Assembly (NCBI GenBank): GCA_045536365.1
Contig: JAZSNL010000016.1
Coordinates: forward strand, 46,003-110,002
Direction of reading: 5' to 3'
DNA: 64,000 nt
Source: Bacilli bacterium
Lineage (GTDB): Bacteria > Bacillota_I > Bacilli_A > ML615J-28 > CAG-313
This document shows, piece after piece, positions 1 through 23,625 of the stretch (within the stretch, counting starts at the first letter, position 1; every line of letters starts with the position of its first letter). The translations under genes were made by a program, and so were the position numbers. Under the pieces are notes generated by a model. The model saw only the letters and a program-made list of their open reading frames with translations. It did not search any database and was not told where the DNA came from.

Positions 1-3000
1 AACAGTAATACCGTTTAACATGCTTACTCTTGAGAATACTTTTTCTACTAATTCTTGTTCATGTCCTTCGATAATTGCAAGACCGAATGCAGCTTCAACA
101 AGTGATGCAATTGCATATTCATCGTTTGCATTCTTATTATCAAGTTTTCCATATACGCTACCAGCACCGAAATAATCTAATGCGATAATGTCAGAAATCA
201 TTGATACACCAACTTTATAATCAGCTACAAAGTCAGCATCTGTGTAATTAGCATCTGATAATAAGTCTTTAAGGATTTGGAATCTTCCGCCAAGAACTTT
301 ATTATATAATCTAATTGCAAGAGTTCTACCTAAAGTTTCTAATAAGTATGAATCTTCTAATTCAGCTAATGCTTTTTGAGCATAACCTAAGAATTCATTA
401 TTCTTTAATGTAGATAAATCATCTAATTTAACACCGCTAACATTTAATGCATATTTTAATTGAGATAAGAATGCATTACCTAAAGCAGCTTCGTGGTTCC
501 AGTTAATATTAGCTAATTTAGCTTCTAATTCTGGAGTAGACACGTTAAGTTTTCTTACTAAGTAAGTAACTACTGAAGTCAAGTTATCTTTAGAAAGTTC
601 AGATGTAACTAAGAAGTCTACAATACCCATTAATGGATCTGTATTCTTATAGCTTAATTTGCCTTCTAATAAGCCTAATTCAGCAGCATATTCGATTAAT
701 TCATAAACTTCAGGAAGATATTCATTAATTAATTTTTCATTGAATTCTTCAGTAGTTAAAGTTTCAAATAATTCGAATCCAGGAAGTGCAGTAGCTAACA
801 TACGAGCTGCGCCACGTGCAACTGGTAATAATAATTGTCCTAATACAGCTTGATCAGCAACTTGACTTACTAATGAAGTGAAGTCAGCTTGGAATTGATC
901 TGTATTAATAACTGTTAAGTTAGTTCTAGATAATTGTGGAACATATGTCTTAGCGAAGCCATAAGCAGCTTTTGCAAGAGCATATAAACTCTTAACTGTT
1001 TGTTTAGAGCTGATTCCTTCGTAATTTAATTCAAATTCACCAACTGCGTAAACACGGTTAATTGTCTTATCTAAGTATTCGTATAATTTAGCAGGTAAGT
1101 TAGTATTGTTCTTTAATACAGTAGAAAGTAATGTTAAACCATTAGCAGCATCTAAGTTGATAACAGCGTTAGCACCATTTCCGAAGAAGCCCATATTAAC
1201 GAATGCTTTTGCGATATTAGATAAATCAGCTAAGAATTCAACAGCTTTAGCTCTATCAGCATTTACTAATGGAGAATCTGCGTCAACTTTAGCAGCTAAA
1301 GGACCAACAAATTCACTTACTAACCAGTAACCAGCTTCTTCAGCTAATGTAGTTGTAACGAATGCATCATATAATCTAATTGTAGCTTCAACAACAGCTT
1401 CATTTCCTAAAATACCTAATGTACCTAAGTTACCTTTAACATCTAAGAATACTTCATTGAATAATGTTACGAATGCATCTGCATGAGCAGCGTATGCATA
1501 ACCATCAGCATCCCAGTTAACATTAGATAAATCTAATGATGTTAAATCTAAGCCTAAGTAAGAAGAGATGAATTCAACAGCATCTTGTGCTTTATCATCA
1601 ATAATATTTAATCCAAAGAAATCAATAATGATTTCAGCGATATAACTTTCTGCAGCAGCTGTTAATTCAGTACCTGTGCAGTATGCTTGGTAAGCATTAG
1701 AATCGAATAAGTTACGAGCGATTGCAGCAACACTATCTAAGTCTTCTGCTAATTCAGCATTAGTATAAGTACTTAAATCTAATAAGATTAATGCGTTACC
1801 TGATAATGATTTAGTTAATTCACGATAGATTGGTAATGCAACAACATCAACTAATTCAGATGCAGCTAAAGCTTCAAAGAATTCAACTGTTGTTTCATAA
1901 TTATCACGCATGAATAATCTATAAGCTTCTTTAACTAATTCAACTTTACCTAAGTCTTTTAAGCCTTTTAAGTAATAATAAGTTTCTCTAGCTTCATGTA
2001 AACCGTAAGTATTAGCAATTGTTAATGCAGCTTCTAACATACCAGAAACAGCATCTAATTCATTTGCCCAATCGATACTTCTTAATTCATATGCGCTAAT
2101 AGATACACCTAATTTACCACAAGCAGCTTCAACAACTTCAGCATGTTTACCTTGTGCTAAATGTAAATTCCATACAGTTTCTAATGCAAGGATTGCTTTT
2201 TCAACATTTTCAATTGAAATGTTCTTACCATCTCTTACATGTTGTCCTTCATTATACATGAAGTCTAATGTTGCTTGTGCAGCAACTAATAAACTATCGT
2301 AGTCTTCTGCTAATGCTTCAGTGCTTAATCCATTAGGAGCTAAGAAACGAGCACCAGGAATAGAACTATTAGAAAGTTTTTCTAATACGATAGGTAATGC
2401 TTCTGCTAATAATTGAGAACCGCTTAATTCTTGTAAACCTTCAACAGTTTGAGAACCTAATACATAATCAGATACTAAACGTTTCCAATTGAATGTTGAC
2501 ATTGAGAATGCGCGTAATTTAGCAATTGTATCTAAATCTAATTCATTAGCAACAACTGCTAATTTTTCATAAGCAGGAATAAAGTAGTTATTAGCTTCAT
2601 TTACTAAGTCAATATTACTATAATCGATATCTAGAATAGGTTTAGCTAATCTATTAGCAATTTCAGTTTGATATTGTGCAAAGTATTGAGTATTAACAAC
2701 TAATGAGATAACATTAGCGATTTCACTTCTAGTGTAATCAATAACGTAATTTTCTGTACCGTTTAAGTAATCAGAAATAATTGCAGGAGCTCCAAGTGAA
2801 TCTAATTCAGCAAGAACTTCTACTAATGTATCGAAATCAGCAAGTAATGATTCTTGATCTGCGTAGAAACTTAAATCAAATGCTTTAGAAGCTTTGCCAT
2901 CTAATAATGGAGCAACTACTAGATTATATAAATCATAAGCGTTATTTCTTAATACATCTAAGTTAACTAAGTTAGCAACTAATTCTTGAACTAAATCATA

Positions 3001-6000
3001 ATCAGCTTCATCAGCTAATAATTCTAATACAGCATCAAGGTTAACTTTGCTACTTAATTCTTGTAATGTTTGAACATCTAATGCTTCAAGAACATCAAAT
3101 AATTGAGGGATGATAACATCTCTTAAAGCTTTTAAGCTTCTGTCTAATTCAGCAGCAGTGAAATTAGAACCTTCAAAATTGAATTGGCCAAGAGTGAAAC
3201 CATTTACGAAGTCTCTTAATACTAATTCGCCTAAAGCTTCAAATTTACCAAAGAACATATTAGTGTTCATTACTAATTCTAATGCTTCAAGTAATTTAGC
3301 TTCAAGAACATCTAAATCAGCAGATTGAATATTTAATACACCAGAATCTCTAACTGCGATTGCAGCATTGAATAATGCATCAAAGTCTTCTACTAATTGT
3401 TCTTGAGATAAGTCAGCAATTAATAATTCATAATACTCAGGAAGAGCTTTTTCAGCTACAGGAAGTAATACAACTAATACTAAGAAACCAGTTTGTTCAT
3501 AGATAGTAGTATCCATGTAAGCACGAAGAATATCTTTAAGAGTTTCAATAACAGCATCTTTAGTAAATAATGCAGGGTTAAGTTTTGCAGTTGAGAAGTC
3601 CTCAAATGTATGATAAGGGAATTCATCTTGTGCAATAATGTGAGTTGCTGAGTGGTAAATATCACCTAATTTAGCTGCATCACCAGCGAAATCTAATGCG
3701 TTACCATCTACTAATTCAGCAAATCCTAAAGCTTCAACTAATGCAGCACCTCTGCCTACACCATTGAAGTATCTCATACCGAAGATTTCATTTAAGATTG
3801 TCTTAACTGCATGAATTTCAAACCATGGGATTTCAATTTGGTTTTCAAATACAGCTTCAAGATCTAATGAAATTAATACTTCAAGTGCATTTTGAATTCT
3901 AGTGATATCTTCGCCCATAACAGCGTATTTACCATAGATTTCATTTACGCCAGCAAGTGCATATAAATTAGCAGGCATATATTTATCTAAAAGAGGGAAT
4001 AAGATTTCAGATAATAATTTATCATTCTTAGCGTATTCTAATACATTGATAATATGACGTAATTGTTCTTCTTGGTGAGTGAAGTAAACAGATACATCTT
4101 TATAATTAACTTTCTTAATATCGTTAACTGTTTCTAAGTTCCAGTTTCTAGCGAATCCTTGAACTTCATTGATTAAACCAGAAATTGCAGCAACTTCTTC
4201 ATCCATTGTTACATCTGATAAATCAAATAAACCAGTAACTTCAATTCCTTCTAATAAAGCTTCTACAACTTTACCGAAGTTATCTTCAGCTAATACATGA
4301 GTATCAGCTAAGTATTCTAATGCTTCTACAACAGCGTCAAGTTCAGCGAATTGTAAATCAAATTCAGCAGGTACTTGTGCATAATGTAAAGCATTTGTAT
4401 CAACTAATAATACTTCAACGGCGTTAAGTACTTTAACAACGTCAGAAGCTAATTCTTCATTAGTAAATTGACCTTTGAAGAATGTTAAGTTAAAGCCTTT
4501 TTCAGAAGCAAGTTCTAGGCCTTTTTCAAGTAATGGATTTAATCCTAATTGAACTAATTCAAGTTTAACTAATGCTTCAACTACATCTAATGCTTCAATT
4601 AATGATTCAACAGTGTAGAATTGAATATTAGCATAATCTTTATTAACGATGAAGCTTGCGATTTCATCGTAACCGTTTAAGTTAGCTTCAAATAAGAATT
4701 CAGAAGCAGCAGTAATAACTTCTTGGAATAATGCATTTTCAGAAGTGAAATTAATGTGTTCTAATTCAGCAGCGCTAACAGTTAAATCTAATTTAGCAGC
4801 TTTAGCTACTTCATTGATTGCTAATGCGATCCAATCAGTTTCAACTAATGTTAATAATTGGATTTCTTGTAATAATTCGATTGCATTATTTACATAATTG
4901 AAATCAAAGTCATCAACAACAACGTTTTCTAAAATTTCTTTTAATCCAAATGCAACTAATTCATCAAAGATATTTTCGATTACATCTAAGTCAGCTTTTA
5001 ATACTGCTGCATTATATTCACCATCATAAGGTTTTGCAGAAGAACCATTATCAGCTAAAGCAGATAAGAATGAAATATCTAATCCTTTAGAAGATGCTAA
5101 TTCTATAGCATATTCTAATCCCCAACCAAGTGCAGGGTTAGCTAATTGTAAATCTAATACATGATCTACAATTTCAAATGCATGTTTAACATTTGCAAAT
5201 TCGTTTCTTGTCCAGAATTTAGTTTTTGCATATTCTTTAGAATTAATAAATCCAAAGATTGTAGCTAGACCATCAATACCATTTTCACTTAAGAATTGAC
5301 CTAATTCTGTAACAATAACTTGTAATTGTGCGTTTTCTTGACTCCAGTTAATTCCTTCTAATGCAGCTGCATTGAATTCATATGGAAGTTTAGAAGCCAC
5401 TAATTCTAATACGACATTTGCCCATTCACCAGCGAATTTATTTAATGCGTTGATTTCATCAACTTTTGCAATAATTTCATTGATACCAGCAAAATCAAAG
5501 TGTTCAATATCATTTGTATTGATATATTCATATAAACCGCAAGTACGTAATTGTCTTACGATTACTAATACAGTTTCAACATCTTGTACTAATTCTTCTT
5601 GAGATAATTCTCTTAAGAATTTAACATCTAATCCTTTAGACATGCCAGTTCCAGCATAAACAGCTAATTCATAGAATTCATGTAATGCTTCCATGTTAGA
5701 AACAGCTGTAAGGATATCGATTAAGTTGTCAACACATTCTTCATTATAGATATTTAAATCTAAGAAATCTTTATTTGTAAAGAAAGCAATTAATGAAGAT
5801 AATTGAGTTAATCCAAAGTCTTCAACAATAGTATCTAATTCAGAAACGATAGCGTATAATTGAGCAAATTCGTTTTCGATACTAACATTTTCAAAGTCTT
5901 TTTCATCATATCCGAATTGGTAACCTAATTCTAATTTATCAACTAAAATGTTACCAGCATATGCGAATAAGTCTTGAGCATTATCATAAACGATATTTAA

Positions 6001-9000
6001 TTCATATAAGTTACCAATAATATTTGCTGCATAATCTAAATCTAAATCAGCAATATCTTTAGTGAAGATGTATTCTAATGCACCTAAATCAACAGCGTTG
6101 ATTAAGATTTCAACTAGAGTATGAGCATCTTCTAATAATTTTTCTCTGTTGTATTCATATTCGAAATATTCTTCCATAAATACAGCAGGGTAACCCATTG
6201 CATCTAACTTAGCAAAGCCAAGAGCTAATGCGTATGGTAATAAGCTTTCAGTTAATTGTAATTCAAGAACACTTTCAACGATTTCAGCAACTTTATTAAC
6301 GTTAGCTTTATCATTTTCAGTCCAGAAATCAGCATCTTTATATTCATCGCCCTTGAAGAATTCTACAGCACCAGGATAAGAATTTGCTTCGTTTGCTGTT
6401 AAGAATGCACCAAGTTGTTTAACGATATCAACGATAGATTCTTTTTCTTGAGCCCAATCAAATGCGAAATCATCAGCCTCAACAGTTACATTTAATTTAA
6501 CTTTTTCAGCTAATTTGTTTAATCCGAATGCTGTTAATTCAGCTTCGTTGCCATTAATAATATTTAATGCAAGAACTTTATCAACGATAGTTGCTAATAA
6601 GTCTGTATCAATATTATTTAATTCTTTGTTTTTAATAAATTCTAATGCACCTAATGCTACTGCATCTTTAGCAATAGAAGTAATAGCTCTAACATCTTCA
6701 AGAAGTTCTTCACCAGTGTAAGCTAAGAAATCAACATTCATATTTGCATTGTCTGCGATGTCTTTTAAGAATACAACTGCTTCAGGAGCAAGAGATGCTA
6801 AAATTTGTGAATCAGCTAACATAGCTACTGCATCTAATGCATTATAAGCAACATCTTTATATGCAATATAGAATGCAAGATCAGTATAGTTACCAGTTTC
6901 GATAAATGTCATAACATCAGATAAACTGCTTAATTTTGCAGCATCTAATACTTTTTGTAATTGAAGAACAACATTTTGTAACATTGCCATTTCTTCAACA
7001 TAATTAATAGCTTCAGCTTCATCTAAAGTAACAACGAATTCGTTATCGAAATTGATTAAGCTTAATGCATAATTAACACCAAATTCTACTAATTCAGGTT
7101 CAATATCAGCAACTAAGTGTAATTGTTGTACTAATCCTAAAATGTTAGCAGCAGGAGCTAATGAAATTTCTTGAATATCTTTAGTAAAGATATATTCAAT
7201 TGCACCTAATTCAACTGCTTCTAAAGCGATATCTACGATTGTATTTAAATCTTCTGCTAAGCTTTCAGCAGTATATTCAACTTCAAGATAGTATCTTAAG
7301 AATGCAAGTGGTAAGCCAGTTTTGTCAATATATGGACGAATCATATCAGCTGCAACAGGCCATAAAACGCCGATAGTTTGAAGTTGAGTTGCAGGTCTTA
7401 ATACTCTTGCAATACCAGCAACTAATTCATCTGTCCATGATGAATATTCTTTATAAGTGTCTTCAAGGACGAAATTAATAACATCCTTTAAGTATCTAGC
7501 ATTTAATGCTTTAACTAAATCTTCAGATTCTCTAACAATTGATGCTAATAATGCGAATTCTTGTTCGAAGTCAACAGCTTTTATATCATCTAATGTAATA
7601 GTAAAGTCAAGTTTTGCAATGCCGCCAACATAGTTAAGAGCTTCAACATATAATTCATCAATACATTTACTTACTAAATTCAAATCATATAATCTTTCGA
7701 TTGCAGTTGCAACGATATTTAATGATTCAGCATTTAATACTAATTCTGTATTAACTTGATTTTCATAAATTTCAACTAAATCAAGTGGTAATACTAAATC
7801 AATAATTTGAGATAAAGTTAATAAGTCAGCTTGGAAATCTTCAGCTGCCAATTCTCTGAATGCTTTACTACTAATTTCAAATGTGCCTTTTTCATTAGTT
7901 GTTGTAACGATTGGATCTGGAATTAATGGAAGAATTGCTACAACTGCATTACCAACTAATTTAGAACCAGATAATACTGCTAATAAATCAGCTGCGATTG
8001 CGATGTTTTCATTCTTAATTAAAGCACCATCTAAGTATAATTTCTTATCAATAAATAATCTTACATCTTCAACAGTTAAGATATTATTTTCTTCTAAGAA
8101 ATCAGCTAACAATGGGAATAAACCTTGAATTGTTTCAGATTCTTTAGACCAATCTTCGATTGTTTCTAAAGCGAAATCTTCAACTTTAATCTTATCTTGT
8201 TTAGCTAATACGCTTGTTAAGATAGAACTAATTAAATTACTTTCGTAACCTTTTAATAAATTTAATTCAAATACTTTTGCAACGATTTGTTGTAATGCAG
8301 CAACTTTTTCATCACCGAAGTTTAAGTCACCTGTCCAATCGTTTGTTAAATAAGTAAGAATTTCAGTTTCATCAGTTACTAATTGAACGATACTTAATAA
8401 ACTTCTTACATCTTCTGCAAGTTGTTCACCAGTTAATTCAGCTTCTTTCCAGAATGTTAAATCAAAATTATTTTCAAATTTATTTAATAATACTGGGAAT
8501 GCTAATTCAAGAATAACTTCTAAAGTATCTAATTGTGTTAAGTTAGATAATACTGCAATGATTTCTCTTGCATTTTCTACATTTGCGAAATCAGCTTCTA
8601 AATAAGCTTTTTCTTTAATGAATCTATTGAAATCACTAACACTAATTAATCCATTAGCGTCTAATAAATCGCTAATTCCATGTAAAACTACTTTTAATTT
8701 ATCGCCTTCAGCTTTAAAATCGATTCCAGCTAAATCATCTAAAGTAATTTCAACATCAATGTTTTGTTTAGCTAATGTTTCTTTTAAGAAATTGTCATAT
8801 ACCCAAACAATAACTTCTGCGCCTTTACCATCAAACATTGTTACGTCTTTTAACGCATCAATAATGTTGTCGATAATAGCGTTGTCTAATTGTAATGCAC
8901 CATTAGACATAAATTCTTGTGCATTTAATTCGATAGCTTGATCAGCAACATAAACTAATGTTCTGATATCGCTTAATAAGTCTGCACCTGACATATTACT

Positions 9001-12000
9001 AATATCTAAAATATCAACGATACCTTGGAATTGATCAGGAATCATATTCTTTTCTACTACTAGTTTTTCATATAAATCAGGTAATAATAATTCTACTAAT
9101 TTAGAATAAGTTAAATAATTTGTACCTTCTGCTTCATATTGACCAACAATAACTTGTAAAGCATTTACTAAAATTCTGCTGTTTACTTGGTTAGTTAAAT
9201 ATTCTAAGTCAATATTGAATTGGTTTTCATTAAAGAACTTGTAATCATTTAAGATAGGTCTTAATGTTTCGATTGCTTCTAAGATTAATAATCTTTCTTC
9301 AGCAAAATTAATGCCGTCGAAGTAACCTTTTTCAACATCCATAACTTTAAGAACTTTTAATACGATACGTAATACTTGACCTTCATGACCTTCAAATAAA
9401 ACGTTACCTAATAAAACATCAACAATATTTAAGATTCTATCAACTTCATTTAATTTTAAAGTTTCAAGTGGAGCTTTATCGAATGCTACATCAAATACAC
9501 CAATGTACTTAGCATCTTTAACTACAGATAAGATTTCTTGTAAAGCTACTAAGATTTCTTGAGAAGTAACTTCTTCAAGAACGCCTGCTAATGCGCCTTC
9601 ATCTTCGATTGATTTTTCAATTAAAGGTAATACTTTAGTTTGAATAACATCTGGTAAGATTGCAAGAACAATATCAGATTCAATTAATTCATCAATTGCG
9701 TTAATAGCAATATCATAGAATGCATCGTTATTTAATAACTTGTTAACTTCAAATTTGAAATTATTAATATCAACGCCTTCTAATTTAACTAATTCTTTAT
9801 ATTGATCTAAAATTGCTTGTAAAACTTTAATTTCATTTTCCCATTCAACTTCTGAGAAATCTGGAGTTGCAGAAACAATATCAAATTTAACTAATGCTGC
9901 TGTTAATAGACCTTCTTTAGCATTATCATCACCAAGAATATTTAATGTTAATACAGTTTCAATCGCAGCTTTAAGAGTATCAATTGCTTTGTCACTTGTT
10001 AAATCCATTGAAGAAATTTGAAGTGATAAAACATTTAATTCATTTAAGTCTTTAGCTAATTCTAAAATATCTTCAATATCTTCTGTCCATTGTTCATTAG
10101 ATAAATTAGTTAGTTTAATATATCCATTGAATTCTGGTAAGCCATTAGTTTTAAATGTTTGATTTAATACACCATCTAAAACAGGAGCAACAACAACAGG
10201 AATTAAAGAAGAATCAAAAATAGTTGTTAAAGTATCTTTAGCAGTAACAAATTTATCATTATCTTCTAAGATATCAGTAACTAATTCCATACCACCTTTG
10301 AAATCATCTAAACTATCAAAGCCTAATAATTTAAACATATCATAAGCTTCAACTAAATTTAGTAAATCTTCTTTCCAAGCAATAGCATCAGTATTAATTT
10401 CAAAACTTAAGTTACCTGTTAATTTCTTAACAGCTTCTAAGTTAACAGCTACACATGTGCCAATGTTTAATACTAATTCAAAACTTTCCGCTTCAAATAA
10501 TTTTTCAACAACTTCTTTTAATACTTCAGTGTTAAGATCGAATAAATCAATCATTTGTTCTGCTTCAGGATCAAATAATTTTGATGCAGCTTTTAATACT
10601 TCAGTATATGCATCCATTTCTTGTTCCCAATCAACATCCATTAAAGCATTAAAGTTATCTGTTTGACCAGCAGCTTCTAACATTGTATGTAATGATTCAT
10701 TACCTGTTGCATAATTAAATGCAATTGGGATAAGTAATTGATCAAACAAATCTAAGTTAGCAACTTTAACTAGCATTTGAGCAACAGTTTCAAGTTTTTC
10801 TTCATTTCTTAATACTTCTCTGAAGAATTCATTTCCATTAAATCCGTTAAGAGTTTCAATACCTAAGTCTTGGAATGTATCATAGATACCAACTAATTTA
10901 ACTAAATCATTTTTCCAATTGATTCCAGTTAAATCTGGGTTTTTATCCATTGTTCCAATTAAATTTTCAACGGCTTCAATTCTTAATGCAGTATTAACAA
11001 GAACAGGTAATAAGTTATTGATTAATTCAGTATCACCTAAATGTTCAACAACATTAACTAATACATCTGGATTCATTGTTAAGTAATTAAATTCACTTGA
11101 GAAGATATCTAACTTATAAACTTCTTTAACTGCATCAAGGATAAGTTCAATATCTTGATCCCAGTTAATATAACGAAGTTCTAAGAAATCACCTTGTTGA
11201 TTTGCTTTTGTAAGTAAATCTTTTAAGCCAAGTTTTAACATTTCTTCATCTTCATAAAGGAATTCAACTGCAACAGGCATTAATTCAGGTAATAATTGAG
11301 AGTATTTTAATTCATCTAAAGCATTATTAACTTCTGCTTGAGACCATTTAAATAAATCTTCTTTTGCAAATTTACCTTCTAATGCGTTAACTGCATAAAC
11401 GAATGTGATTAATTCTTCACGAACCGGAATTCTTTGAGTTTCAGTTTCAATTACTAATAACGAATCAAAAGTAATTGTACTAAATGAATCACCAAAGAAA
11501 TATGCTGAACCTTCAACTACTTTACCAATACCACTTTCATAGTATGAGTCAACGAAGCCAAATAATAAATCAGCAACTGATTCACCTTCTTCAGATACGT
11601 TTGCTTTATCGCCATCAATCATTTCAGCGATCGCATCTCTTGTCTCAGGAGATGCTTCAGCAAGAACTGAGCAAATTCCAGCGATAGGTGCAAATAAAAT
11701 AATAATTACTGCTAAACCTTTTAACACACCGATAACTGCGCCCCATACATTAGAGCGATATTTCCATGGTTTTGGTGCATCATTAGCGGCAACAGAAACT
11801 ACTACGTCATCCATTCCTAAATCGCTTTCTGATACTACTACAGTTTCTTCAGCTGTTGAATCTTTTTGTTCTTCTGATTCTTCAGCTACTTCTTCTGTAG
11901 CATTTGCAGCTTTCTTTTTCTTAACAGCTCTAACAATTAACCATACAATATGAGTAATTAGGCGAATAATAGGAGTTACTAAGAATGTAACGACTGTGAT

Positions 12001-12381
12001 GGCCATTAATCCTACTCCTCTTACTAAGCCAGAAACCACATTGTAGAATAGGTCATAAGTAGCTTTGCCTTCAATTAATAAACTTTCACCATTAGGAATC
12101 ATTTCTTGTCCTAAAAGAACAACAACATCCCAAATAGTTTTACAGTTTGAGGCATCGCCTTGAACCATACCCTTAAGAAGTTCTACAGCGGCTCCTTTAG
12201 AGTTTAGTAAAGTAGCTGCATCACCGAATATTAGCCATGCAAGAATTAGCATTACTAATATTACAGCTGTCCACGTAAGTTCTCTTCTAGCTTTTGCGAA
12301 GAAGCCCCATACAGCGAACAAGATTACCATTAATAAGCATCCCAAACCTACTAATAGTAAAGCTGAGCTAATAAAATCCAT
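1..12381 (-). CDS. Giant membrane-anchored repeat protein, 5' portion only (start codon at 12379..12381; frame stays open to position 1, so at least 4,127 codons lie in the window and the stop is beyond the left edge). CvpA-like N-terminal membrane domain followed by a long acidic helical repeat region.
   Basis: ATG at 12379-12381 preceded by AAGAGGTG. The hand-translated N-terminus MDFISSALLLVGLGCLLMVILFAVWGFFAKARRELTW has a GF..RE..TW pattern like the first CvpA TM hairpin. The ORF track reports no minus-strand ORF in this frame between 1 and 12381, which can only happen if there is no in-frame stop. Hand translation at 11131-11172 (YINWDQDIELILDA), 10903-10950 (MDKNPDLTGINWKNDL) and 1-60 (EQELVEKVFSRVSMLNGITV) gives clean coding sequence. 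The small plus-strand ORFs in this region are antisense shadows. Confidence 0.85.
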   Translation of the reverse strand, partial: MDFISSALLLVGLGCLLMVILFAVWGFFAKARRELTWTAVILVMLILAWLIFGDAATLLNSKGAAVELLKGMVQGDASNCKTIWDVVVLLGQEMIPNGESLLIEGKATYDLFYNVVSGLVRGVGLMAITVVTFLVTPIIRLITHIVWLIVRAVKKKKAANATEEVAEESEEQKDSTAEETVVVSESDLGMDDVVVSVAANDAPKPWKYRSNVWGAVIGVLKGLAVIIILFAPIAGICSVLAEASPETRDAIAEMIDGDKANVSEEGESVADLLFGFVDSYYESGIGKVVEGSAYFFGDSFSTITFDSLLVIETETQRIPVREELITFVYAVNALEGKFAKEDLFKWSQAEVNNALDELKYSQLLPELMPVAVEFLYEDEEMLKLGLKDLLTKANQQGDFLELRYINWDQDIELILDAVKEVYKLDIFSSEFNYLTMNPDVLVNVVEHLGDTELINNLLPVLVNTALRIEAVENLIGTMDKNPDLTGINWKNDLVKLVGIYDTFQDLGIETLNGFNGNEFFREVLRNEEKLETVAQMLVKVANLDLFDQLLIPIAFNYATGNESLHTMLEAAGQTDNFNALMDVDWEQEMDAYTEVLKAASKLFDPEAEQMIDLFDLNTEVLKEVVEKLFEAESFELVLNIGTCVAVNLEAVKKLTGNLSFEINTDAIAWKEDLLNLVEAYDMFKLLGFDSLDDFKGGMELVTDILEDNDKFVTAKDTLTTIFDSSLIPVVVAPVLDGVLNQTFKTNGLPEFNGYIKLTNLSNEQWTEDIEDILELAKDLNELNVLSLQISSMDLTSDKAIDTLKAAIETVLTLNILGDDNAKEGLLTAALVKFDIVSATPDFSEVEWENEIKVLQAILDQYKELVKLEGVDINNFKFEVNKLLNNDAFYDIAINAIDELIESDIVLAILPDVIQTKVLPLIEKSIEDEGALAGVLEEVTSQEILVALQEILSVVKDAKYIGVFDVAFDKAPLETLKLNEVDRILNIVDVLLGNVLFEGHEGQVLRIVLKVLKVMDVEKGYFDGINFAEERLLILEAIETLRPILNDYKFFNENQFNIDLEYLTNQVNSRILVNALQVIVGQYEAEGTNYLTYSKLVELLLPDLYEKLVVEKNMIPDQFQGIVDILDISNMSGADLLSDIRTLVYVADQAIELNAQEFMSNGALQLDNAIIDNIIDALKDVTMFDGKGAEVIVWVYDNFLKETLAKQNIDVEITLDDLAGIDFKAEGDKLKVVLHGISDLLDANGLISVSDFNRFIKEKAYLEADFANVENAREIIAVLSNLTQLDTLEVILELAFPVLLNKFENNFDLTFWKEAELTGEQLAEDVRSLLSIVQLVTDETEILTYLTNDWTGDLNFGDEKVAALQQIVAKVFELNLLKGYESNLISSILTSVLAKQDKIKVEDFALETIEDWSKESETIQGLFPLLADFLEENNILTVEDVRLFIDKKLYLDGALIKNENIAIAADLLAVLSGSKLVGNAVVAILPLIPDPIVTTTNEKGTFEISSKAFRELAAEDFQADLLTLSQIIDLVLPLDLVEIYENQVNTELVLNAESLNIVATAIERLYDLNLVSKCIDELYVEALNYVGGIAKLDFTITLDDIKAVDFEQEFALLASIVRESEDLVKALNARYLKDVINFVLEDTYKEYSSWTDELVAGIARVLRPATQLQTIGVLWPVAADMIRPYIDKTGLPLAFLRYYLEVEYTAESLAEDLNTIVDIALEAVELGAIEYIFTKDIQEISLAPAANILGLVQQLHLVADIEPELVEFGVNYALSLINFDNEFVVTLDEAEAINYVEEMAMLQNVVLQLQKVLDAAKLSSLSDVMTFIETGNYTDLAFYIAYKDVAYNALDAVAMLADSQILASLAPEAVVFLKDIADNANMNVDFLAYTGEELLEDVRAITSIAKDAVALGALEFIKNKELNNIDTDLLATIVDKVLALNIINGNEAELTAFGLNKLAEKVKLNVTVEADDFAFDWAQEKESIVDIVKQLGAFLTANEANSYPGAVEFFKGDEYKDADFWTENDKANVNKVAEIVESVLELQLTESLLPYALALGFAKLDAMGYPAVFMEEYFEYEYNREKLLEDAHTLVEILINAVDLGALEYIFTKDIADLDLDYAANIIGNLYELNIVYDNAQDLFAYAGNILVDKLELGYQFGYDEKDFENVSIENEFAQLYAIVSELDTIVEDFGLTQLSSLIAFFTNKDFLDLNIYNEECVDNLIDILTAVSNMEALHEFYELAVYAGTGMSKGLDVKFLRELSQEELVQDVETVLVIVRQLRTCGLYEYINTNDIEHFDFAGINEIIAKVDEINALNKFAGEWANVVLELVASKLPYEFNAAALEGINWSQENAQLQVIVTELGQFLSENGIDGLATIFGFINSKEYAKTKFWTRNEFANVKHAFEIVDHVLDLQLANPALGWGLEYAIELASSKGLDISFLSALADNGSSAKPYDGEYNAAVLKADLDVIENIFDELVAFGLKEILENVVVDDFDFNYVNNAIELLQEIQLLTLVETDWIALAINEVAKAAKLDLTVSAAELEHINFTSENALFQEVITAASEFLFEANLNGYDEIASFIVNKDYANIQFYTVESLIEALDVVEALVKLELVQLGLNPLLEKGLELASEKGFNLTFFKGQFTNEELASDVVKVLNAVEVLLVDTNALHYAQVPAEFDLQFAELDAVVEALEYLADTHVLAEDNFGKVVEALLEGIEVTGLFDLSDVTMDEEVAAISGLINEVQGFARNWNLETVNDIKKVNYKDVSVYFTHQEEQLRHIINVLEYAKNDKLLSEILFPLLDKYMPANLYALAGVNEIYGKYAVMGEDITRIQNALEVLISLDLEAVFENQIEIPWFEIHAVKTILNEIFGMRYFNGVGRGAALVEALGFAELVDGNALDFAGDAAKLGDIYHSATHIIAQDEFPYHTFEDFSTAKLNPALFTKDAVIETLKDILRAYMDTTIYEQTGFLVLVVLLPVAEKALPEYYELLIADLSQEQLVEDFDALFNAAIAVRDSGVLNIQSADLDVLEAKLLEALELVMNTNMFFGKFEALGELVLRDFVNGFTLGQFNFEGSNFTAAELDRSLKALRDVIIPQLFDVLEALDVQTLQELSSKVNLDAVLELLADEADYDLVQELVANLVNLDVLRNNAYDLYNLVVAPLLDGKASKAFDLSFYADQESLLADFDTLVEVLAELDSLGAPAIISDYLNGTENYVIDYTRSEIANVISLVVNTQYFAQYQTEIANRLAKPILDIDYSNIDLVNEANNYFIPAYEKLAVVANELDLDTIAKLRAFSMSTFNWKRLVSDYVLGSQTVEGLQELSGSQLLAEALPIVLEKLSNSSIPGARFLAPNGLSTEALAEDYDSLLVAAQATLDFMYNEGQHVRDGKNISIENVEKAILALETVWNLHLAQGKHAEVVEAACGKLGVSISAYELRSIDWANELDAVSGMLEAALTIANTYGLHEARETYYYLKGLKDLGKVELVKEAYRLFMRDNYETTVEFFEALAASELVDVVALPIYRELTKSLSGNALILLDLSTYTNAELAEDLDSVAAIARNLFDSNAYQAYCTGTELTAAAESYIAEIIIDFFGLNIIDDKAQDAVEFISSYLGLDLTSLDLSNVNWDADGYAYAAHADAFVTLFNEVFLDVKGNLGTLGILGNEAVVEATIRLYDAFVTTTLAEEAGYWLVSEFVGPLAAKVDADSPLVNADRAKAVEFLADLSNIAKAFVNMGFFGNGANAVINLDAANGLTLLSTVLKNNTNLPAKLYEYLDKTINRVYAVGEFELNYEGISSKQTVKSLYALAKAAYGFAKTYVPQLSRTNLTVINTDQFQADFTSLVSQVADQAVLGQLLLPVARGAARMLATALPGFELFETLTTEEFNEKLINEYLPEVYELIEYAAELGLLEGKLSYKNTDPLMGIVDFLVTSELSKDNLTSVVTYLVRKLNVSTPELEAKLANINWNHEAALGNAFLSQLKYALNVSGVKLDDLSTLKNNEFLGYAQKALAELEDSYLLETLGRTLAIRLYNKVLGGRFQILKDLLSDANYTDADFVADYKVGVSMISDIIALDYFGAGSVYGKLDNKNANDEYAIASLVEAAFGLAIIEGHEQELVEKVFSRVSMLNGITV

Positions 12382-12416
12382 AATTTCACCTCTTTTATTT
12401 ATGACTTTACTCACTT

Positions 12417-12445
12417 ATTTTACCAAATTATTAAAAATTTTGCAA
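12417..12445 (-). promoter_or_regulatory. Candidate sigma-A promoter for the giant gene: TTGCAA, 17 nt spacer, TGGTAAAAT (extended -10)
   Basis: On the minus strand: ttgcaa (12440-12445), a 17-nt spacer, then tggtaaaat (-10 at 12417-12422 with TG extension). It lies about 35 nt upstream of the ATG at 12381. Confidence 0.35.
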
Positions 12446-12552
12446 GTGATTACTTATATTTTTCAGCAATTTTGATACCATTTTTTTACATTTGTTTTCT
12501 TCTTCTTTAAAACAATAATTTAAAATAAGCTAAAAAATAGGAAATTTTCAAT

Positions 12553-12599
12553 AAGATAAAAAAATAAAAAAGACTTATGCAATTATATGCATAAGTCTT
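12553..12599 (-). terminator. Rho-independent terminator downstream of the 1,041-aa paralog, separating it from the giant gene
   Basis: 12-bp perfect stem aagacttatgca / tgcataagtctt (12570-12581 and 12588-12599) with a 6-nt loop. On the minus strand it is followed by a T-rich tract (complement of 12553-12569). Confidence 0.6.
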
Positions 12600-12614
12600 T
12601 AAAAATATTCCTTT

Positions 12615-15600
12615 TTAAGCTAATCCTAACATCTCTAAAATAGATTTTGCAAGCGCAGATTCTTCAACTCTTTCTTTCAATTCAGTATTAGTTTCCAAGT
12701 TAAAATTATCTGGATCTGCATGATAAATTTCAAATACATCTTCTAAAATTACTGCTTCTTCCTCGAAATTTGCTTCACTTAAATCTATTTCACTACCTAA
12801 ATATTCAGAAGCAACTTCATTAATAACATCCTTTGCAAGTTCATTATTTTCAAGATTTTTCAATTCATCAACCAACTTTTGAACTGTTTCTTCTTCTGTC
12901 ATAGTTTCAGTTGTTAAATTAGTCATTGAATTAGCTAAATCAATTAAACCACCAATATTATCAGCTTGTTCATTTAACACATTTGGATCAGTAAAATCAT
13001 ATTTATATGTTCCGTCATCATTCTTAGGAAGTTTATCATATCCATTAACACCAAGAGTTTCAACTAAAACCGTTCCTAATACTTTACTTGCAATAACGCT
13101 TCCGCTAGCTTCTTTCATTATCGCGCTAACATCAGATCCTTTAATAGAAGATAAATCTTCTGCACCTAATAAGCTTTCACTTGCAATATCATAAACATTT
13201 AATGTTCTATTAATTTCGTTAGTCCAACCATTTGTTTTAATCAATTCTTTTTCAGCAGAATTAAATGTTAAATCAAATGATAAACTATCATCAATATTAG
13301 AAACTAATGTTCCGATTAAATCAAATATAATAGGCTCAAATATTTGAGATTCATTAAAGGCATCTAATACTTTACCTATTTGATTAATTGTTTCTTGATC
13401 TCTTTGACCTGTTTCAGGATCAACTTCTAATATTGTTGTAAAATCTAATGAGCTTAAATCTCCACCACATAAATTAGAAATTTCGATGATTACATTTGCT
13501 AATTTACCAGGTTCTGTTTCCCAATCAACATTTTCAATTTCAAGTGTAATTCCATATTCTTCTAACATTGAATTCAATTCAAACGTATCAATCAAGAAGT
13601 TCATTAATTCAGTTTCATTACCTTTAATTAATCCAATATCAAATATTCTTTCTAATAGGTTTTTAATAGCTTCAGGATTATTTAAATCAATATTTCCCTC
13701 TTCACCAAACAGAATATTTAAATCCTTTAATCCATAAATGATTTCTACAATATTAATCATTTCTGCTTTAAATTCTTCAGAAGTTGTATTTTTTAAAGCT
13801 TCAAAATTTAATATTCCTTGAAGCCCTTCAGGGATTACACTATCTTCTTTTCCTGCTTGTGAGTTATATAAACTTTCTAATAATAATACGCCAGCTTTTC
13901 TAAATAAATCTGATTCAGCTACTTTACTAACGATATCTAGAGTAAGATCTTTATTATCTATAAAGTATTCAAATGAAATATTTTCCGCATTAATAACAGG
14001 AATTACTGAAAGAATAATATCAGCGATTTTTTCCGGTTCAGTTTCCCAGTTAATTTGTAAGTCATCCATTACATTTTCAGGGACATATTCTTTAATTGCT
14101 TCAACGCTTAATAGTGTTTTGATTAGCCCTTCTTCATGTCCATCAATAACAGTTAAATTGAAAATATTTATTATACTTTCCTTAATTAAAACTTCTTCAT
14201 CTTCACTAATAGGATCTAGTTTTTGGCTAGTTCCGTTTATTAATTCTTTACCTACTCCATATATTTTTTGAACTGTATCAACTAACAACACACTATCGTC
14301 TTTTAAAATTTTAAGAAGGTTTTCTTCTGTTATTAATTCTTCTAAATATTGAGTATCAATTTTATCAATTTTAGCTACTAATTCAGACAGTTTTTCCACT
14401 GCAAAAGGTACACCTATCTTATTAATAATTTGTAATTTTAATAATGAATTAACAATATTACCAAAAGAATCTTTTAGTTTAGGGTCTTCAACAATACTTA
14501 ACGGATCATTGATATCTATTTTTAAATCAACTGCTGCTACTGCAACTTCTTGAATAACATCTATTAACGTATCCATTTCTTTATTAATATCTATTTCCTT
14601 AATGCCAGATAAATTAATTTCAACCCCTTCAAAGTCTCCATTATCAACCGCATAACATAAATATTCAAATCCAACAGGTAAAATTATTTTTACTGATTGA
14701 ATATTTTTTAATACATCACATATTTTAGTAACATCTTCTTCTGATACACCCGCAAAATCAAACATCACTTTTTCTTCAGTAACTTCTATTTTAGAAGTTA
14801 TAACTGGTATAATTTGTCTTAAATTAGCATATTCTTCTACAAAATCTAATTTACCGTGTTCTGTTTTAACTGTTAATAGGCTACCAATATATTTAGCATC
14901 TAAAGTTAAATCATTCTTTTTATCTCTTGTGATATTAAATATTTTTCTTGTAATACAAGAATCAAATTGATTATTAAATTCAGTAAATAATTCTTCTGTT
15001 GTTGAATTTGTTAAATCTTTATTAGGGGATTTTAAAAGCATTTCTAATAAGCTATTTAATCCACTCGTATCAGAACTAACAGTCACTTCTTCTGAATTTT
15101 CTGTGTTTTCAATAATTCCATATGTTTGTTCAAAATCATCAATTGCAAGTTTAGTAATTGATAATGTACCGAAAATTGGAATTAAAAACACAATAAAGAA
15201 AACTGCAAATTCTAAGAATCCCATCCCCATTCCTAATAAACGAGAAAATAATGTTTTTCTTTTCTTTACTTTCTTCCCTATTTTTTCATCAACTACTTTG
15301 TCATCAAAAATTAACATATTGAAAAAAGCGAGTATTAATCTTAGTATTGGTCCTATAATAGCAAATATTAAAATTGTACCTACTGTATAAATTACAAATT
15401 TTAAAATTCCTACAGCTACGCTTTCCGCAAAGACTAATAATTCACTATTTGGTACATCTACACTGCCGTTTGTATAAATGTTTTCTTGAATCAATGTCAC
15501 CGCATAGTCTTTAACTGAAGTGAATCCTTCAATAATATTGTATTTACTTATGTCTGTTTCTAATATTTTTACCGCGATACTGCCTAAAAAGATTGCGAGT

Positions 15601-15740
15601 AAAACAAAAGGAACAACTATTGATATTACTCTTCTTGTTGATTTATTAAACCCAATAATAAACCCTCTTAATAAACAAAAAACAAGAGCTATCAATACTA
15701 ATAAATCTAATCCTAAATTAATATATTGTAAAACTGACAT
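12615..15740 (-). CDS. CvpA-like membrane domain fused to an acidic helical repeat region. It is a shorter paralog of the giant protein (about 1,041 aa from the corrected start).
   Basis: ORF track 12615..15791. The internal Met at 15738-15740 has a GGAGG RBS 7 nt upstream and leaves a 34-nt gap to the murA stop, so it is the preferred start. The N-terminus LDLLVLIALVFCLLRGFIIGF... matches the CvpA LRGF motif, with four predicted TM helices. The C-terminal ~800 aa is rich in E/D/L/I/N with recurring motifs INWETEPEK and VDWETEPGK. Confidence 0.8.
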   Translation of the reverse strand: MSVLQYINLGLDLLVLIALVFCLLRGFIIGFNKSTRRVISIVVPFVLLAIFLGSIAVKILETDISKYNIIEGFTSVKDYAVTLIQENIYTNGSVDVPNSELLVFAESVAVGILKFVIYTVGTILIFAIIGPILRLILAFFNMLIFDDKVVDEKIGKKVKKRKTLFSRLLGMGMGFLEFAVFFIVFLIPIFGTLSITKLAIDDFEQTYGIIENTENSEEVTVSSDTSGLNSLLEMLLKSPNKDLTNSTTEELFTEFNNQFDSCITRKIFNITRDKKNDLTLDAKYIGSLLTVKTEHGKLDFVEEYANLRQIIPVITSKIEVTEEKVMFDFAGVSEEDVTKICDVLKNIQSVKIILPVGFEYLCYAVDNGDFEGVEINLSGIKEIDINKEMDTLIDVIQEVAVAAVDLKIDINDPLSIVEDPKLKDSFGNIVNSLLKLQIINKIGVPFAVEKLSELVAKIDKIDTQYLEELITEENLLKILKDDSVLLVDTVQKIYGVGKELINGTSQKLDPISEDEEVLIKESIINIFNLTVIDGHEEGLIKTLLSVEAIKEYVPENVMDDLQINWETEPEKIADIILSVIPVINAENISFEYFIDNKDLTLDIVSKVAESDLFRKAGVLLLESLYNSQAGKEDSVIPEGLQGILNFEALKNTTSEEFKAEMINIVEIIYGLKDLNILFGEEGNIDLNNPEAIKNLLERIFDIGLIKGNETELMNFLIDTFELNSMLEEYGITLEIENVDWETEPGKLANVIIEISNLCGGDLSSLDFTTILEVDPETGQRDQETINQIGKVLDAFNESQIFEPIIFDLIGTLVSNIDDSLSFDLTFNSAEKELIKTNGWTNEINRTLNVYDIASESLLGAEDLSSIKGSDVSAIMKEASGSVIASKVLGTVLVETLGVNGYDKLPKNDDGTYKYDFTDPNVLNEQADNIGGLIDLANSMTNLTTETMTEEETVQKLVDELKNLENNELAKDVINEVASEYLGSEIDLSEANFEEEAVILEDVFEIYHADPDNFNLETNTELKERVEESALAKSILEMLGLA

Positions 15741-15774
15741 GTTTCGCCTCCTAATTAGATTTATTATAGCACAC

Positions 15775-17025
15775 TTAATTTTCCTTTTCAATCATTATTT
15801 TCAATTTTTTTAATTTTTCTTCAATATCTTCATATCCCCTTTTGATAACTTCAAAATTGTTTATAGTTAGTTCTTTAGTTAATGCTGATAATAAAATTAA
15901 AGAAAAACCTCCTCTTAAATCTTTTGCGGTTGCAATGTTTATATTTAAAATACTTTCATCTATAACAATATCATTATTATGAATATAAATGTTTGCACCT
16001 GAAGAAACCAATTCTTCAATTTGTGAAGTTCTTTGTGGATATATTGTATCCGATATTTTTGATTTACCTTGTGCCTTTAACAATAATATTAATATTATTT
16101 GTTGTAAATCTGTTGGAAATTCGGGATATTCACCGGTTTTTATTGTTATAGGTTTTAATACATTAGGTGATTCTATAATAAGTTTTCTTTGTTCATATGT
16201 GATTCTAACATTCATTTTTCTTAATACTTCAATTACTTTTTCTAATTTACATGGATTAACATTTTCTAATATGACTTTACTTTTAGGTATTATCGATGAC
16301 AATATCATATAACTTCCAGCTTCAATTCTGTCAAATGGAATATCATATGTAGTTCCAAATAATTTTTTAACGCCATATATAACTAATTTATTTTCTTTAA
16401 ATAGAATATTAGAACCCATTTGATTTAACATTTCAATTACTGATAATACATCCGGTTCATGTGAATAGTTCTCTATTTCAACTATTTTATTTGAACAAAC
16501 TGTATTAAGTAAAATATTTATAGTTGTCCCTACACTAGGTTTAGGTAGTTTAATAGATATTCTTTTATTTTTTATTTTTCTTTTTTTAATTAATATATAT
16601 CCTTTTTTTAGTATTACTTTATATCCTAATTGTTTAAATGCTTCTAAATGATAATCAATAGGTCTAACTGAAAAATTACAACCTCCTGGTTGTTTTATTT
16701 TTATTTTTCCTTTTCTTGATAGAATTGATCCTATAAAATAATAGGATGCTCGAATGGAAGCTACTTTATCTGATAGGATATTTGTCGATATTTTTTTGAA
16801 ATTCAATCTTAATCTTTTATTTAGTTTGTTATAATCTAATTTCCCTTTTGCTTCTATCGCAATTTCCATCATATTTATTACATCCGTAATAAAAGGAACA
16901 TTATTTAATATCACATCTTCATTAGTTAAAATTGAAGCTGCTATGAGTGGTAAAGTTGTATTTTTAGAACCACTTATATTAATCGTTCCTTTTAAATAAT
17001 TTGGCATTTTTATTTTCATTTTCAT
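15775..17025 (-). CDS. murA: UDP-N-acetylglucosamine 1-carboxyvinyltransferase
   Basis: N-terminal ISGSKNTTLPLIAASIL and the active-site Cys context KQPGGCNFSVRPID are typical of MurA, at 416 aa. Confidence 0.85.
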   Translation of the reverse strand: MKMKIKMPNYLKGTINISGSKNTTLPLIAASILTNEDVILNNVPFITDVINMMEIAIEAKGKLDYNKLNKRLRLNFKKISTNILSDKVASIRASYYFIGSILSRKGKIKIKQPGGCNFSVRPIDYHLEAFKQLGYKVILKKGYILIKKRKIKNKRISIKLPKPSVGTTINILLNTVCSNKIVEIENYSHEPDVLSVIEMLNQMGSNILFKENKLVIYGVKKLFGTTYDIPFDRIEAGSYMILSSIIPKSKVILENVNPCKLEKVIEVLRKMNVRITYEQRKLIIESPNVLKPITIKTGEYPEFPTDLQQIILILLLKAQGKSKISDTIYPQRTSQIEELVSSGANIYIHNNDIVIDESILNINIATAKDLRGGFSLILLSALTKELTINNFEVIKRGYEDIEEKLKKLKIMIEKEN

Positions 17026-17106: not shown

Positions 17107-17135
17107 ATGTAATGTCGGAAAGTAAGGCGATGAAT

Positions 17136-18257
17136 ATGAAGTACAGAATCGAGAAAGATATTCTCGGAGAGAAGAAAATGCCAAGTGAAGTATATTATGG
17201 CATATATACTCTACGAGGCAAAGAAAATTTTCAAATCACTAAACGCGGTATATGTAGACAATTAATCAAATCAGTAACTATTGTTAAAAAAGCAGCAGCT
17301 AAAGCAAATTATGAAGCCGGTGCATTAGAAGAAAAAGTTGCTGATTCAATCATTTTAGCTTGTGATGAAATATTAAATGGAAGACTTCACGGACAATTTG
17401 TAACTGATTTAATTCAAGGTGGTGCTGGTGAAAGCATTAATATGAATGCAAATGAAGTTATTGCGAATAGAGCTAATGAAATGTTAGGTGGAGAAAAAGG
17501 AAAATATGAATTTGTTGATCCTATTAAACACGTTAACTACGGACAAGCTACTAATGATGTTATTCCTACTGCAGGTAAAATAGCAGTAATTAAACAATTA
17601 AAAAAATTAATTGTTGAATTAAAAAAATTAGAAAATTCTTTTAAAACTAAATCCAAAGAATTTGGGTTTACAAAAACAAGCGAAGAATTCGCTGCTATCG
17701 CAACATTATTATCAAGAGACATTAAACGTATCGAAGGATCTATTAATGATTTATCAGAAATAAACTTAGGCATTAATGCTTTAAAACAAAATACTCGTGG
17801 AGCTGATAAATATTTTAAAAAGATTATTATATATATTAATAAATACTCTGGAGAAACTTTAAGACATAGTAAAAACTTACTTGATTCTACTAGAAGTCTA
17901 GATAGTTTCTTATGGGCAAGCAGTTGTTTGAAAACTCTAGCTGTTGGATTATCAAAAGCCGCTAATGATATTAATATTTTATCTGATCCAGAACATCGTG
18001 AAATTGTCTTACCTATTGTTCAGATCGATAGCAGTAATAAAGAATATAATCCTGTTATAATTGAAATGGTTAACCAAGTAGCATTTTATGTTATGGGATT
18101 AGACGTTACTGTTACAAAAGCTATTGAAGCAGGACAATTATCAAATAATATCTTTTTACCAATTATCTTAACTTCTTTATTTGAATCTATTTCTGTTTTG
18201 AGAAGAGCTTCTAGAACTTTAAGAGAATTAGTAATCGATGACACTAAATTAGCATAA
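17136..18257 (+). CDS. Aspartase/fumarase class II family protein, divergent: degenerate SS loop and no C-terminal domain
   Basis: MKYRIEKDILGE matches the FumC/AspA N-terminus (MEYRIERDTMGE). GGAGESINMNANEVIANRA corresponds to the conserved TGSGTQSNMNVNEVIANRA and NYGQATNDVIP to SQSSNDTFP. The signature GSSIMPGKVNPTQCE is replaced by DSSNKEYNPVIIE. The protein is about 373 aa versus about 460 for FumC. Confidence 0.7.
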   Translation: MKYRIEKDILGEKKMPSEVYYGIYTLRGKENFQITKRGICRQLIKSVTIVKKAAAKANYEAGALEEKVADSIILACDEILNGRLHGQFVTDLIQGGAGESINMNANEVIANRANEMLGGEKGKYEFVDPIKHVNYGQATNDVIPTAGKIAVIKQLKKLIVELKKLENSFKTKSKEFGFTKTSEEFAAIATLLSRDIKRIEGSINDLSEINLGINALKQNTRGADKYFKKIIIYINKYSGETLRHSKNLLDSTRSLDSFLWASSCLKTLAVGLSKAANDINILSDPEHREIVLPIVQIDSSNKEYNPVIIEMVNQVAFYVMGLDVTVTKAIEAGQLSNNIFLPIILTSLFESISVLRRASRTLRELVIDDTKLA

Positions 18258-23486: not shown

Positions 23487-23511
23487 ACATTCCTCCTTTT
23501 TATAAAAAAAA

Positions 23512-23618: not shown

Positions 23619-23625
23619 ATAAAGA

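Follow-up and report, generated by a model that had tools for sequence, protein, structure and literature searches.

The window analysed here, a 64,000-nt stretch of the Bacilli contig JAZSNL010000016.1 (coordinates below are window positions), carries two neighbouring genes, which we call S and G, whose products join a divergent N-terminal membrane domain of the CvpA/Colicin_V superfamily to a long array of a ~185-residue, all-helical module. Neither the module nor its combination with such a membrane domain is described in the libraries and literature that we searched. As the original prediction had it, the two open reading frames (ORFs) lie in tandem and in the same orientation, here on the minus strand; they are paralogs, and they belong to a large family whose architecture and size are firmly established. 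From the evidence below we infer topology, shape, cooperation between S and G, and function, and we lean modestly towards regarding S and G as membrane-anchored, elongated, acidic proteins of the envelope or surface. Their parts are as follows (TM, transmembrane; HMM, hidden Markov model).

12615-15740, minus strand: gene S, complete; ATG at 15740, stop at 12615-12617, 1,041 codons plus stop
15147..15740, minus strand: S residues 1-198, divergent CvpA-like 4-TM domain (Colicin_V, 20.3 bits; S-type consensus, 32.0 bits)
13287..14894, minus strand: S residues 283-818, three module copies (283-464, 479-635, 641-818; repeat HMM)
12618..13286, minus strand: S residues 819-1041, C-terminal region, strongly conserved (many invariant columns close together when the S family is aligned; weak repeat-HMM match at 913-1037)
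1..12381, minus strand: gene G, 5′ part; ATG at 12381, codons 1-4127, frame open to base 1
11647..12381, minus strand: G residues 1-245, divergent CvpA-like 4-TM domain (hydropathy, colinear alignment with S, hhalign 99.9 %)
11767..11907, minus strand: G residues 159-205, acidic stretch inserted into the TM3-TM4 loop, which is predicted to be cytoplasmic (alignment and G-type consensus)
11209..11646, minus strand: G residues 246-391, conserved region between TM4 and the repeat array (aligned with P0009 and P0010; the repeat HMM weakly covers its last part only)
1..11208, minus strand: G residues 392-4127, at least 20 consecutive module copies (BLASTP; HMM tiling 392-570 ... 4033-4126)

The reading frame of G runs for 4,127 codons with no stop, and its 3′ end lies beyond the window. 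An exhaustive HMMER search found a protein (P0011, 4,861 residues) that is 99 % identical to G across all 4,127 residues. Its 90 % cluster has 14 members, 11 of which, from several independent assemblies and including one NCBI record, are exactly 4,861 residues long; we therefore take complete G to be about 4,861 residues. Judged from that form, the full-length product has a mass of 536 kDa, an isoelectric point (pI) of 4.1 and a net charge of about -495. The Acholeplasmatales-like affinity of this DNA raised the possibility of alternative genetic code 4, but a 12.4-kb ORF that under translation table 11 contains no in-frame TGA speaks for the standard bacterial code.

The region after the membrane domain had been described as an acidic, helical repeat region, and both parts of that description stand. 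In S and G alike it is acidic (Asp plus Glu 17-20 %, Lys plus Arg 7 %, pI 4.1, Cys 0.15-0.5 %), and it is a true protein repeat of ~185 residues that goes beyond biased composition. By BLASTP, one ~190-residue stretch of G finds at least 10 other stretches of G at 22-32 % identity, and S matches G at E 3e-4. An HMM derived from eight of the copies in G tiles that protein and also matches S residues 641-773 (E 1e-10); when iterated, it marks out 20 consecutive ~185-residue units from residue 392 to 4126 of G and, in S, three units and, weakly, a fourth. The gap in HMM coverage at about residues 3700-3864 of G is probably a degenerate copy, and the conserved C-terminal region of S, going by its sequence, is possibly a degenerate fourth copy. 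Tandem Repeats Finder reports no relevant DNA-level tandem repeat in the array, which excludes a recent DNA repeat expansion and argues that the array is old and not an artefact of assembly.

AlphaFold2 predicts two consecutive units (G residues 1691-2065, from a 16-row alignment of orthologs) with a predicted local distance difference test score (pLDDT) of 87.5 and a predicted TM-score (pTM) of 0.82. The model contains helices only, about ten per unit, in a pattern that recurs with the 185-residue period. The high pTM suggests that adjacent units pack against each other in a defined way and are not strung together like beads; going by this model, the whole array most likely extends as one long, uninterrupted helical rod or solenoid. 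A coiled coil or a low-complexity region is ruled out by the 185-residue period, the ~10 short helices per unit and the confident fold.

We found nothing credible for the helical region in Pfam or NCBIfam: the isolated weak matches (DUF7683, Phage_int_SAM_6, alpha-hel2, KRAB and others) are noise, since each occurs once and far below its cut-off. A profile search of the PDB with the module was empty, and the module has no significant match there by sequence or fold; nor does it match, by sequence or fold, the known alpha-solenoid repeats (HEAT, ARM, TPR, Sel1 and similar). SLH, LPXTG-anchored, Ig-like and cadherin-like repeats gave no Pfam or NCBIfam match in S or G, and the model is all-alpha. 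PHROGs returned one marginal match of unknown function for S (E 0.002) and none for G, and PADLOC models matched neither protein. The earlier expectation that the repeat region falls outside characterised families thus holds in every library searched. Because it folds confidently and has neither a family assignment nor a structural relative in the PDB, the ~185-residue module is probably a new domain family, for which we propose it as a candidate.

At the other end of the two proteins, hydropathy gives four hydrophobic segments in each, in line with the four TM helices that had been predicted (in G, TM1 at about residues 5-27, TM2 at about 37-58, TM3 at about 115-153 and TM4 at about 212-240), and the N-terminal ~200 residues of S align colinearly with the ~245 of G. 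The shared order is TM1, a basic L-x-G-F-x-x-G-x-x-K/R loop, TM2 and a ~40-residue acidic loop, followed by a long TM3 region, a Lys/Arg-rich loop, and a TM4 that carries R-x-x-G-x-x-x-G and ends in P-x-x-G-x-x-S. The motifs that the original prediction cited for both N-termini are present, and the E. coli CvpA string that it quoted agrees with the real b2313 sequence; its Lys-rich stretch is there as well, but lies in the loop between TM3 and TM4 and not after the TM domain. The conserved residues of the S domain are D12, G26, G30, K33, G170/G174 (the GxxxG), P188 and G191; G-type proteins keep D2, G26 and W-G-x3-G. An insertion of ~45 residues between TM3 and TM4, which has two short Val-rich stretches (motif VVV..x..DDVVV), is confined to giant-type sequences and is conserved in the G-type consensus. 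In S, where the TM3-TM4 loop is shorter, AlphaFold2 predicts two short strands at the corresponding place.

Paralogy of S and G, which had been proposed at the outset, is robust. With the target excluded from the profile in each case, 76 S-type sequences detect G at E 3e-31 and the G-type profile detects S at E 1e-7; hhalign aligns the G-type with the S-type profile over 255 columns (99.9 %, E 2e-33). The N-terminal domains of S and G are thus homologous to each other, and the match of the G-only repeat HMM to S likewise speaks for paralogy of the two proteins.

The relation of this domain to CvpA emerges from families more clearly than from single proteins. For divergent members, the Pfam family Colicin_V (PF02674; curated gathering cut-off, 29.3 bits) is the family that recurs: 13 of 39 full-length relatives of ~1,000 residues match it at E<=0.01 (best, 3.4e-8), and any other Pfam family is matched by at most one of those 39. 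Two sequences exceed the cut-off, the S-type domain consensus (32.0 bits, E 1.4e-7) and the family member P0060 (35.6 bits). Once the loops are deleted, S scores 23.8 bits and the G ortholog P0010 scores 23.2, both alignments being colinear over profile positions 1-124 of 144, and Colicin_V is the top Pfam match of the loop-deleted G-type consensus (20.9 bits). In the reverse direction, E. coli CvpA (b2313, taken from MG1655) aligns with the family profiles as two colinear pieces, one for TM1-TM2 and one for TM3-TM4 including the GxxxG, and scores 21.6 and 23.6 bits against these profiles. None of 2,000 block shuffles of CvpA that keep its hydrophobic layout reaches the real score (maximum, 17.0), reversed CvpA scores below 0 bits, and the other ORFs of the window, membrane proteins included, score at most 4.4 bits.

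Several results pull against this assignment. S itself stays below the Pfam cut-off, at 15.9 bits over its full length and a marginal 20.3 bits (E 5.8e-4) for its N-terminal 200 residues, and G has no match to Colicin_V at all, so that the CvpA-like character claimed for the two N-termini holds at family level and not for the single proteins. The G-type profile alone gives E. coli CvpA 4.7 bits, and a mixed S-plus-G consensus matches unrelated TM families at E-values like those of Colicin_V, which makes hydrophobic bias a real concern for any single match; because of this caveat and the low score of the G-type profile, we take the S-type domain as the link that ties G to CvpA. With an alignment of 8 sequences, AlphaFold2 gave a poor model of the TM domain (pLDDT 54); a PDB profile search with the domain was empty. 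One could accordingly see the N-terminus as a generic four-helix anchor that resembles CvpA through hydrophobic composition and not common descent, but we think this very unlikely in the face of the recurrence of Colicin_V among divergent members, the colinearity, the two sequences above the curated cut-off, and the behaviour of the shuffles and of the other membrane proteins. On the combined sequence evidence, we regard a place for the domain as a divergent member of the CvpA/Colicin_V superfamily as solid, the link being one between families.

P0060 is the only member clearly above the Colicin_V cut-off. It has 201 residues and comes from a 667-bp contig (L012, gene at 36-641), where it ends at a stop codon and a second reading frame carries on with acidic, family-type sequence; for that reason it may be a frameshifted or truncated fragment of a long protein and not a stand-alone small form.

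CvpA is widespread, and its molecular function has been unclear for decades. S and G share with E. coli CvpA a predicted four-helix inner-membrane domain of colinear sequence similarity: TM1, the L-x-G-F-x-x-G loop and TM2, then TM3, a basic loop, and a TM4 that contains GxxxG. They differ in their insertions (the ~40-residue outside loop 2, the ~45-residue TM3 region and, in G, the acidic insertion in loop 3) and above all in what follows: CvpA has 162 residues with a ~40-residue tail, as against 840 to ~4,600 residues of repeats in S and G. At 1,041 and ~4,861 residues, the two proteins are far from the small, single-domain size typical of CvpA (about 160-250 residues). The published account of CvpA describes a conserved Asp in TM1, conserved glycines including a GxxxG, four predicted membrane passes, and a periplasmic C-terminus of variable length that is apparently required for function (bioRxiv 10.1101/2020.09.25.314492).

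There is one characterised precedent for a CvpA-type anchor with an outside passenger, MarP (Rv3671c) of Mycobacterium tuberculosis, whose TM domain we take to be of the CvpA type. MarP, which is tied to cell-wall homeostasis, has four N-terminal TM helices followed by a periplasmic protease domain (PMC6628586). It resembles S and G, with their predicted outside repeats, in having a four-TM N-terminal anchor that carries its passenger on the outer side of the membrane. Its passenger is a chymotrypsin-like protease of ~220 residues, whereas that of S and G is a helical repeat array, and neither Pfam nor NCBIfam finds a trypsin- or chymotrypsin-like protease domain in S or in any part of G.

Another near likeness, on the side of the repeats, is Ebh of Staphylococcus aureus, a megadalton-class acidic, membrane-anchored envelope protein in which dozens of helical-bundle repeats form a long rod. 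Ebh starts with a signal peptide, is anchored at its C-terminus and is made of FIVAR/GA modules about 126 residues long; S and G are likewise acidic, membrane-anchored chains of helical modules, giant in the case of G, but their anchor is N-terminal and of the CvpA type, their module has ~185 residues and ~10 helices, and FIVAR/GA families were not detected in them with Pfam. The talin rod and other chains of helical bundles are also among the closest known systems. Searches of the literature for CvpA with giant proteins, or for Colicin V production with Acholeplasma, found nothing, and the papers that we found on giant genes do not mention the family. The fusion of a CvpA-like domain to a helical repeat array, which the original prediction did not recognise, is thus unfamiliar to the libraries and literature searched as well.

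The family is large. An exhaustive search with the N-terminal domain over 1.84 billion protein representatives matched 330 clusters at E<=1e-3, of which 101 reach E<=1e-10; most are of proteins 800-6,731 residues long. Among the best 150 matches, 23 have 3,800-6,731 residues, 4 have 2,500-3,800, 77 have 800-2,500, and 46 have fewer than 800 and are mostly fragments on short contigs; proteins of 3,857-6,731 residues fall into more than 20 clusters at 50 % identity. At least a weak match to the module is present in 84 of 104 long proteins, with 15-31 recognisable copies in the giants (17-31 in most) and 2-7 in proteins of ~1,000-1,500 residues, and the long proteins examined share an acidic, Leu/Ile-rich, Cys- and Arg-poor composition. 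S has eight orthologs of equal length at 58-97 % identity, and mean column identity in the S-family alignment is 80 %. A word-indexed protein search with G residues 1-1200 returned only two partial orthologs. Almost all members are unnamed, the one named protein being a 'hypothetical protein' of an Acholeplasmataceae metagenome-assembled genome. Pattern-based scans of GTDB representative genomes with S and with the S-family alignment found no relative; because the peptide patterns were narrow, this does not show that relatives are lacking there.

Over 39 members, the net charge is +3.1 for loop 1, -4.6 for loop 2, +3.4 for loop 3 and -7.3 for the 46 residues after TM4, from which the positive-inside rule suggests that both termini are outside (N-out/C-out). 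This topology, drawn from the rule and from analogy, would agree with that predicted for CvpA and with MarP. Cys makes up 0.15 % of the G repeats but 1.17 % of another 43 ORFs in the window, an eightfold depletion, and Arg and His are also low. A review passage names Cys and Arg depletion and Asp/Glu enrichment as signatures of giant bacterial surface proteins (PMC10756260), a pattern that the acidic, Cys- and Arg-poor repeats of S and G resemble.

Under the N-out/C-out topology, the CvpA-type four-helix domain would hold each protein in the cytoplasmic membrane, with its N-terminus outside, two Lys/Arg-rich loops inside and its C-terminus outside; TM4 would act as a signal anchor, and everything after it would be exported. 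The exported part would comprise a conserved region of ~80-150 residues and then, head to tail, acidic modules of ~10 helices, 3-4 of them in S and about 21-25 in full G, so that the outer face of the membrane would bear two kinds of polyanionic projection, a short one of about 94 kDa and a very long one of about 510 kDa. The pair would then form a structural element of the envelope or surface (a spacer, coat or fibre), possibly assembled via the CvpA-like domains, and the exported arrays might also have an adhesive role. The predicted outside position of the repeats and a conserved adjacency to murA, described below, are consistent with the envelope-associated, fibrous or scaffold system of the original prediction, a role that we likewise infer.

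Some observations count against this picture. The topology has the positive-inside rule and analogy as its basis, and interaction between S and G is conjectural. Pfam and NCBIfam scans of S and G turned up neither a signal peptide nor a cell-wall anchor, and no wall-binding domain such as SLH or LysM; in the 4,861-residue ortholog P0011 there is no hydrophobic segment after residue 1,484, and no LPXTG-type end was seen at its C-terminus. The more distant family members are single genes in unrelated contexts (spo0A plus capsule genes, gerA genes, a PAP2 phosphatase gene), so the link to murA is clade-specific and, as functional evidence, weighs little.

Were the topology reversed, with the C-terminus inside, the arrays would be tethered to the membrane from the cytoplasmic side and would act there as scaffolds, either cytoskeleton-like or organising. 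We consider this fairly unlikely: the loop charges over 39 members fit the N-out/C-out arrangement, the literature describes a periplasmic C-terminal part for both CvpA and MarP (bioRxiv 10.1101/2020.09.25.314492; PMC6628586), and the eightfold depletion of Cys relative to the other window proteins also speaks against an inside location. A different question is whether the arrays, exported as proposed, might be adhesins for host mucus, plant fibre or other cells instead of structural elements. Giant, repetitive, acidic surface proteins are often adhesins, two GH5 (glycoside hydrolase family 5) cellulase genes lie 2.5-8 kb away, and module number varies widely among lineages (17-31), as is typical of surface-exposed proteins; yet Pfam and NCBIfam find no known adhesin, lectin, cohesin/dockerin or carbohydrate-binding domain in S or G, the S family is well conserved, and the pair is syntenic with murA and not with variable surface loci, so we judge an adhesin function unlikely.

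That the giant ORF is an artefact of assembly or annotation, such as a collapsed repeat or a chimeric contig, is hardly conceivable. Repetitive giant genes are indeed prone to misassembly in metagenomes, but here the copies are only ~22-32 % identical as protein and DNA-level tandem repeats are absent, a length of exactly 4,861 residues recurs in eleven members of the cluster that come from different samples, and orthologs of 3,857-6,731 residues occur in more than 20 clusters.

Returning to S and G as a membrane-anchored envelope or surface pair, the order of an aspA-like lyase gene (on the opposite strand), murA, the short gene and the giant gene recurs in four places: in the window; in L001-L004, where S is 69 % identical; in L005 (GCA_964507405.1; short protein 1,306 residues, giant 6,731); and in L007/L008 (GCA_964368275.1; 1,031 and 4,489 residues). 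In L005 and L007/L008, short and giant proteins alike have the N-terminal domain and the modules. The short proteins of these two loci are about 17-20 % identical to S, which argues that the pairing of a short with a giant gene is ancient within the clade. The sites around the two genes, and murA itself, are as follows.

15775..17025, minus strand: murA (UDP-N-acetylglucosamine 1-carboxyvinyltransferase), upstream neighbour of S (NCBIfam NF006873, 354 bits against a cut-off of 297)
15747..15791, minus strand: promoter-like site of S (TTGAAA, 17 nt, TG-extended TATAAT; 11 of 12 matches; consensus match only) and AGGAGG ribosome-binding site
12559..12600, minus strand: terminator-like hairpin 3′ of S (13-bp stem, 6-nt loop, T run; consensus match only)
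12417..12445, minus strand: promoter-like site of G (TTGCAA, 17 nt, TG-extended TAAAAT; consensus match only)
about 12387-12392, minus strand: ribosome-binding site of G, GAGGTG (from the sequence)

AGGAGG stands 6 nt upstream of the S start codon, and the promoter-like site of S overlaps the last codons of murA. The terminator and separate promoter that had been placed between S and G are present as a hairpin and a promoter-like site, both by consensus match; the region has 4 terminator-like sites as against 0.6 expected from shuffles.

If S and G are built as we propose, the CvpA fold can carry very large arrays that face outwards. This would go beyond the precedent of MarP, and it suggests that the variable outside C-terminal segment is where CvpA proteins work. 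The giants are among the largest gene products of small-genome, uncultured, gut-associated Bacilli and represent a major biosynthetic investment. A bolder picture, which we offer as a long shot, is that CvpA-type domains go beyond passive anchoring and form a membrane base, possibly oligomeric and possibly with a part in export, dedicated to an unseen class of cell-surface appendage: S and G would co-assemble via their CvpA-like domains into long polyanionic helical fibres of the order of 100 nm that cover uncultured Acholeplasmatales-like and other Bacilli, and E. coli CvpA would be a minimal relic of the scaffold base. If true, this would give a handle on the function of CvpA in E. coli.

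Other features of the window concern its host and the wider neighbourhood. The aspartate ammonia-lyase/fumarase-like gene beside murA (17112-18257, plus strand) encodes 381 residues that match positions 2-392 of a 474-position model, and its product does not have the C-terminal FumaraseC_C part. The orthologs in L001 (374 residues) and L007 (389 residues) are equally short; the one in L005 has 467 residues and includes the C-terminal domain. The two GH5 cellulase genes are paralogous (18284-19732, minus strand, 482 residues; 22041-23528, minus strand, 495 residues), each product having an N-terminal part of ~190-200 residues outside the Pfam domain, and they flank a gene for a 674-residue protein with HAAS and DUF4097 (LiaG-like 'toastrack') domains at 19910-21934. 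Adjacent tRNA-Gln(TTG) and tRNA-Tyr(GTA) genes (23543-23710, minus strand) lie between a GH5 gene and an MgtC-family gene.

The lysyl-tRNA synthetase of the window is 77-79 % identical to proteins of metagenome-assembled genomes labelled 'Bacilli bacterium' and 'Acholeplasmatales bacterium'. With this, and with murA, yabQ and a lysine riboswitch among the genes and elements of the window, we take the host to be an uncultured Bacilli lineage of low GC content (about 28 %) in which the making of peptidoglycan precursors has been kept. The gene for the YabQ-like spore cortex protein (24560-25066) points to a spore-former or a descendant of one. The riboswitch (Rfam RF00168, 95 bits; 32898-33067, minus strand) lies directly upstream of the ORFs at 32025-32873 and 30928-32025, which are presumably genes of lysine biosynthesis or transport. 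Finally, between 36000 and 40000 the G+C content falls to 0.20-0.22, as against about 0.28, and the GC skew is reversed; the ORFs of this block (36853-37977, 37967-39547 and 39548-40315) are also poor in Cys and Arg, and may be horizontally acquired or of the surface-polysaccharide type.

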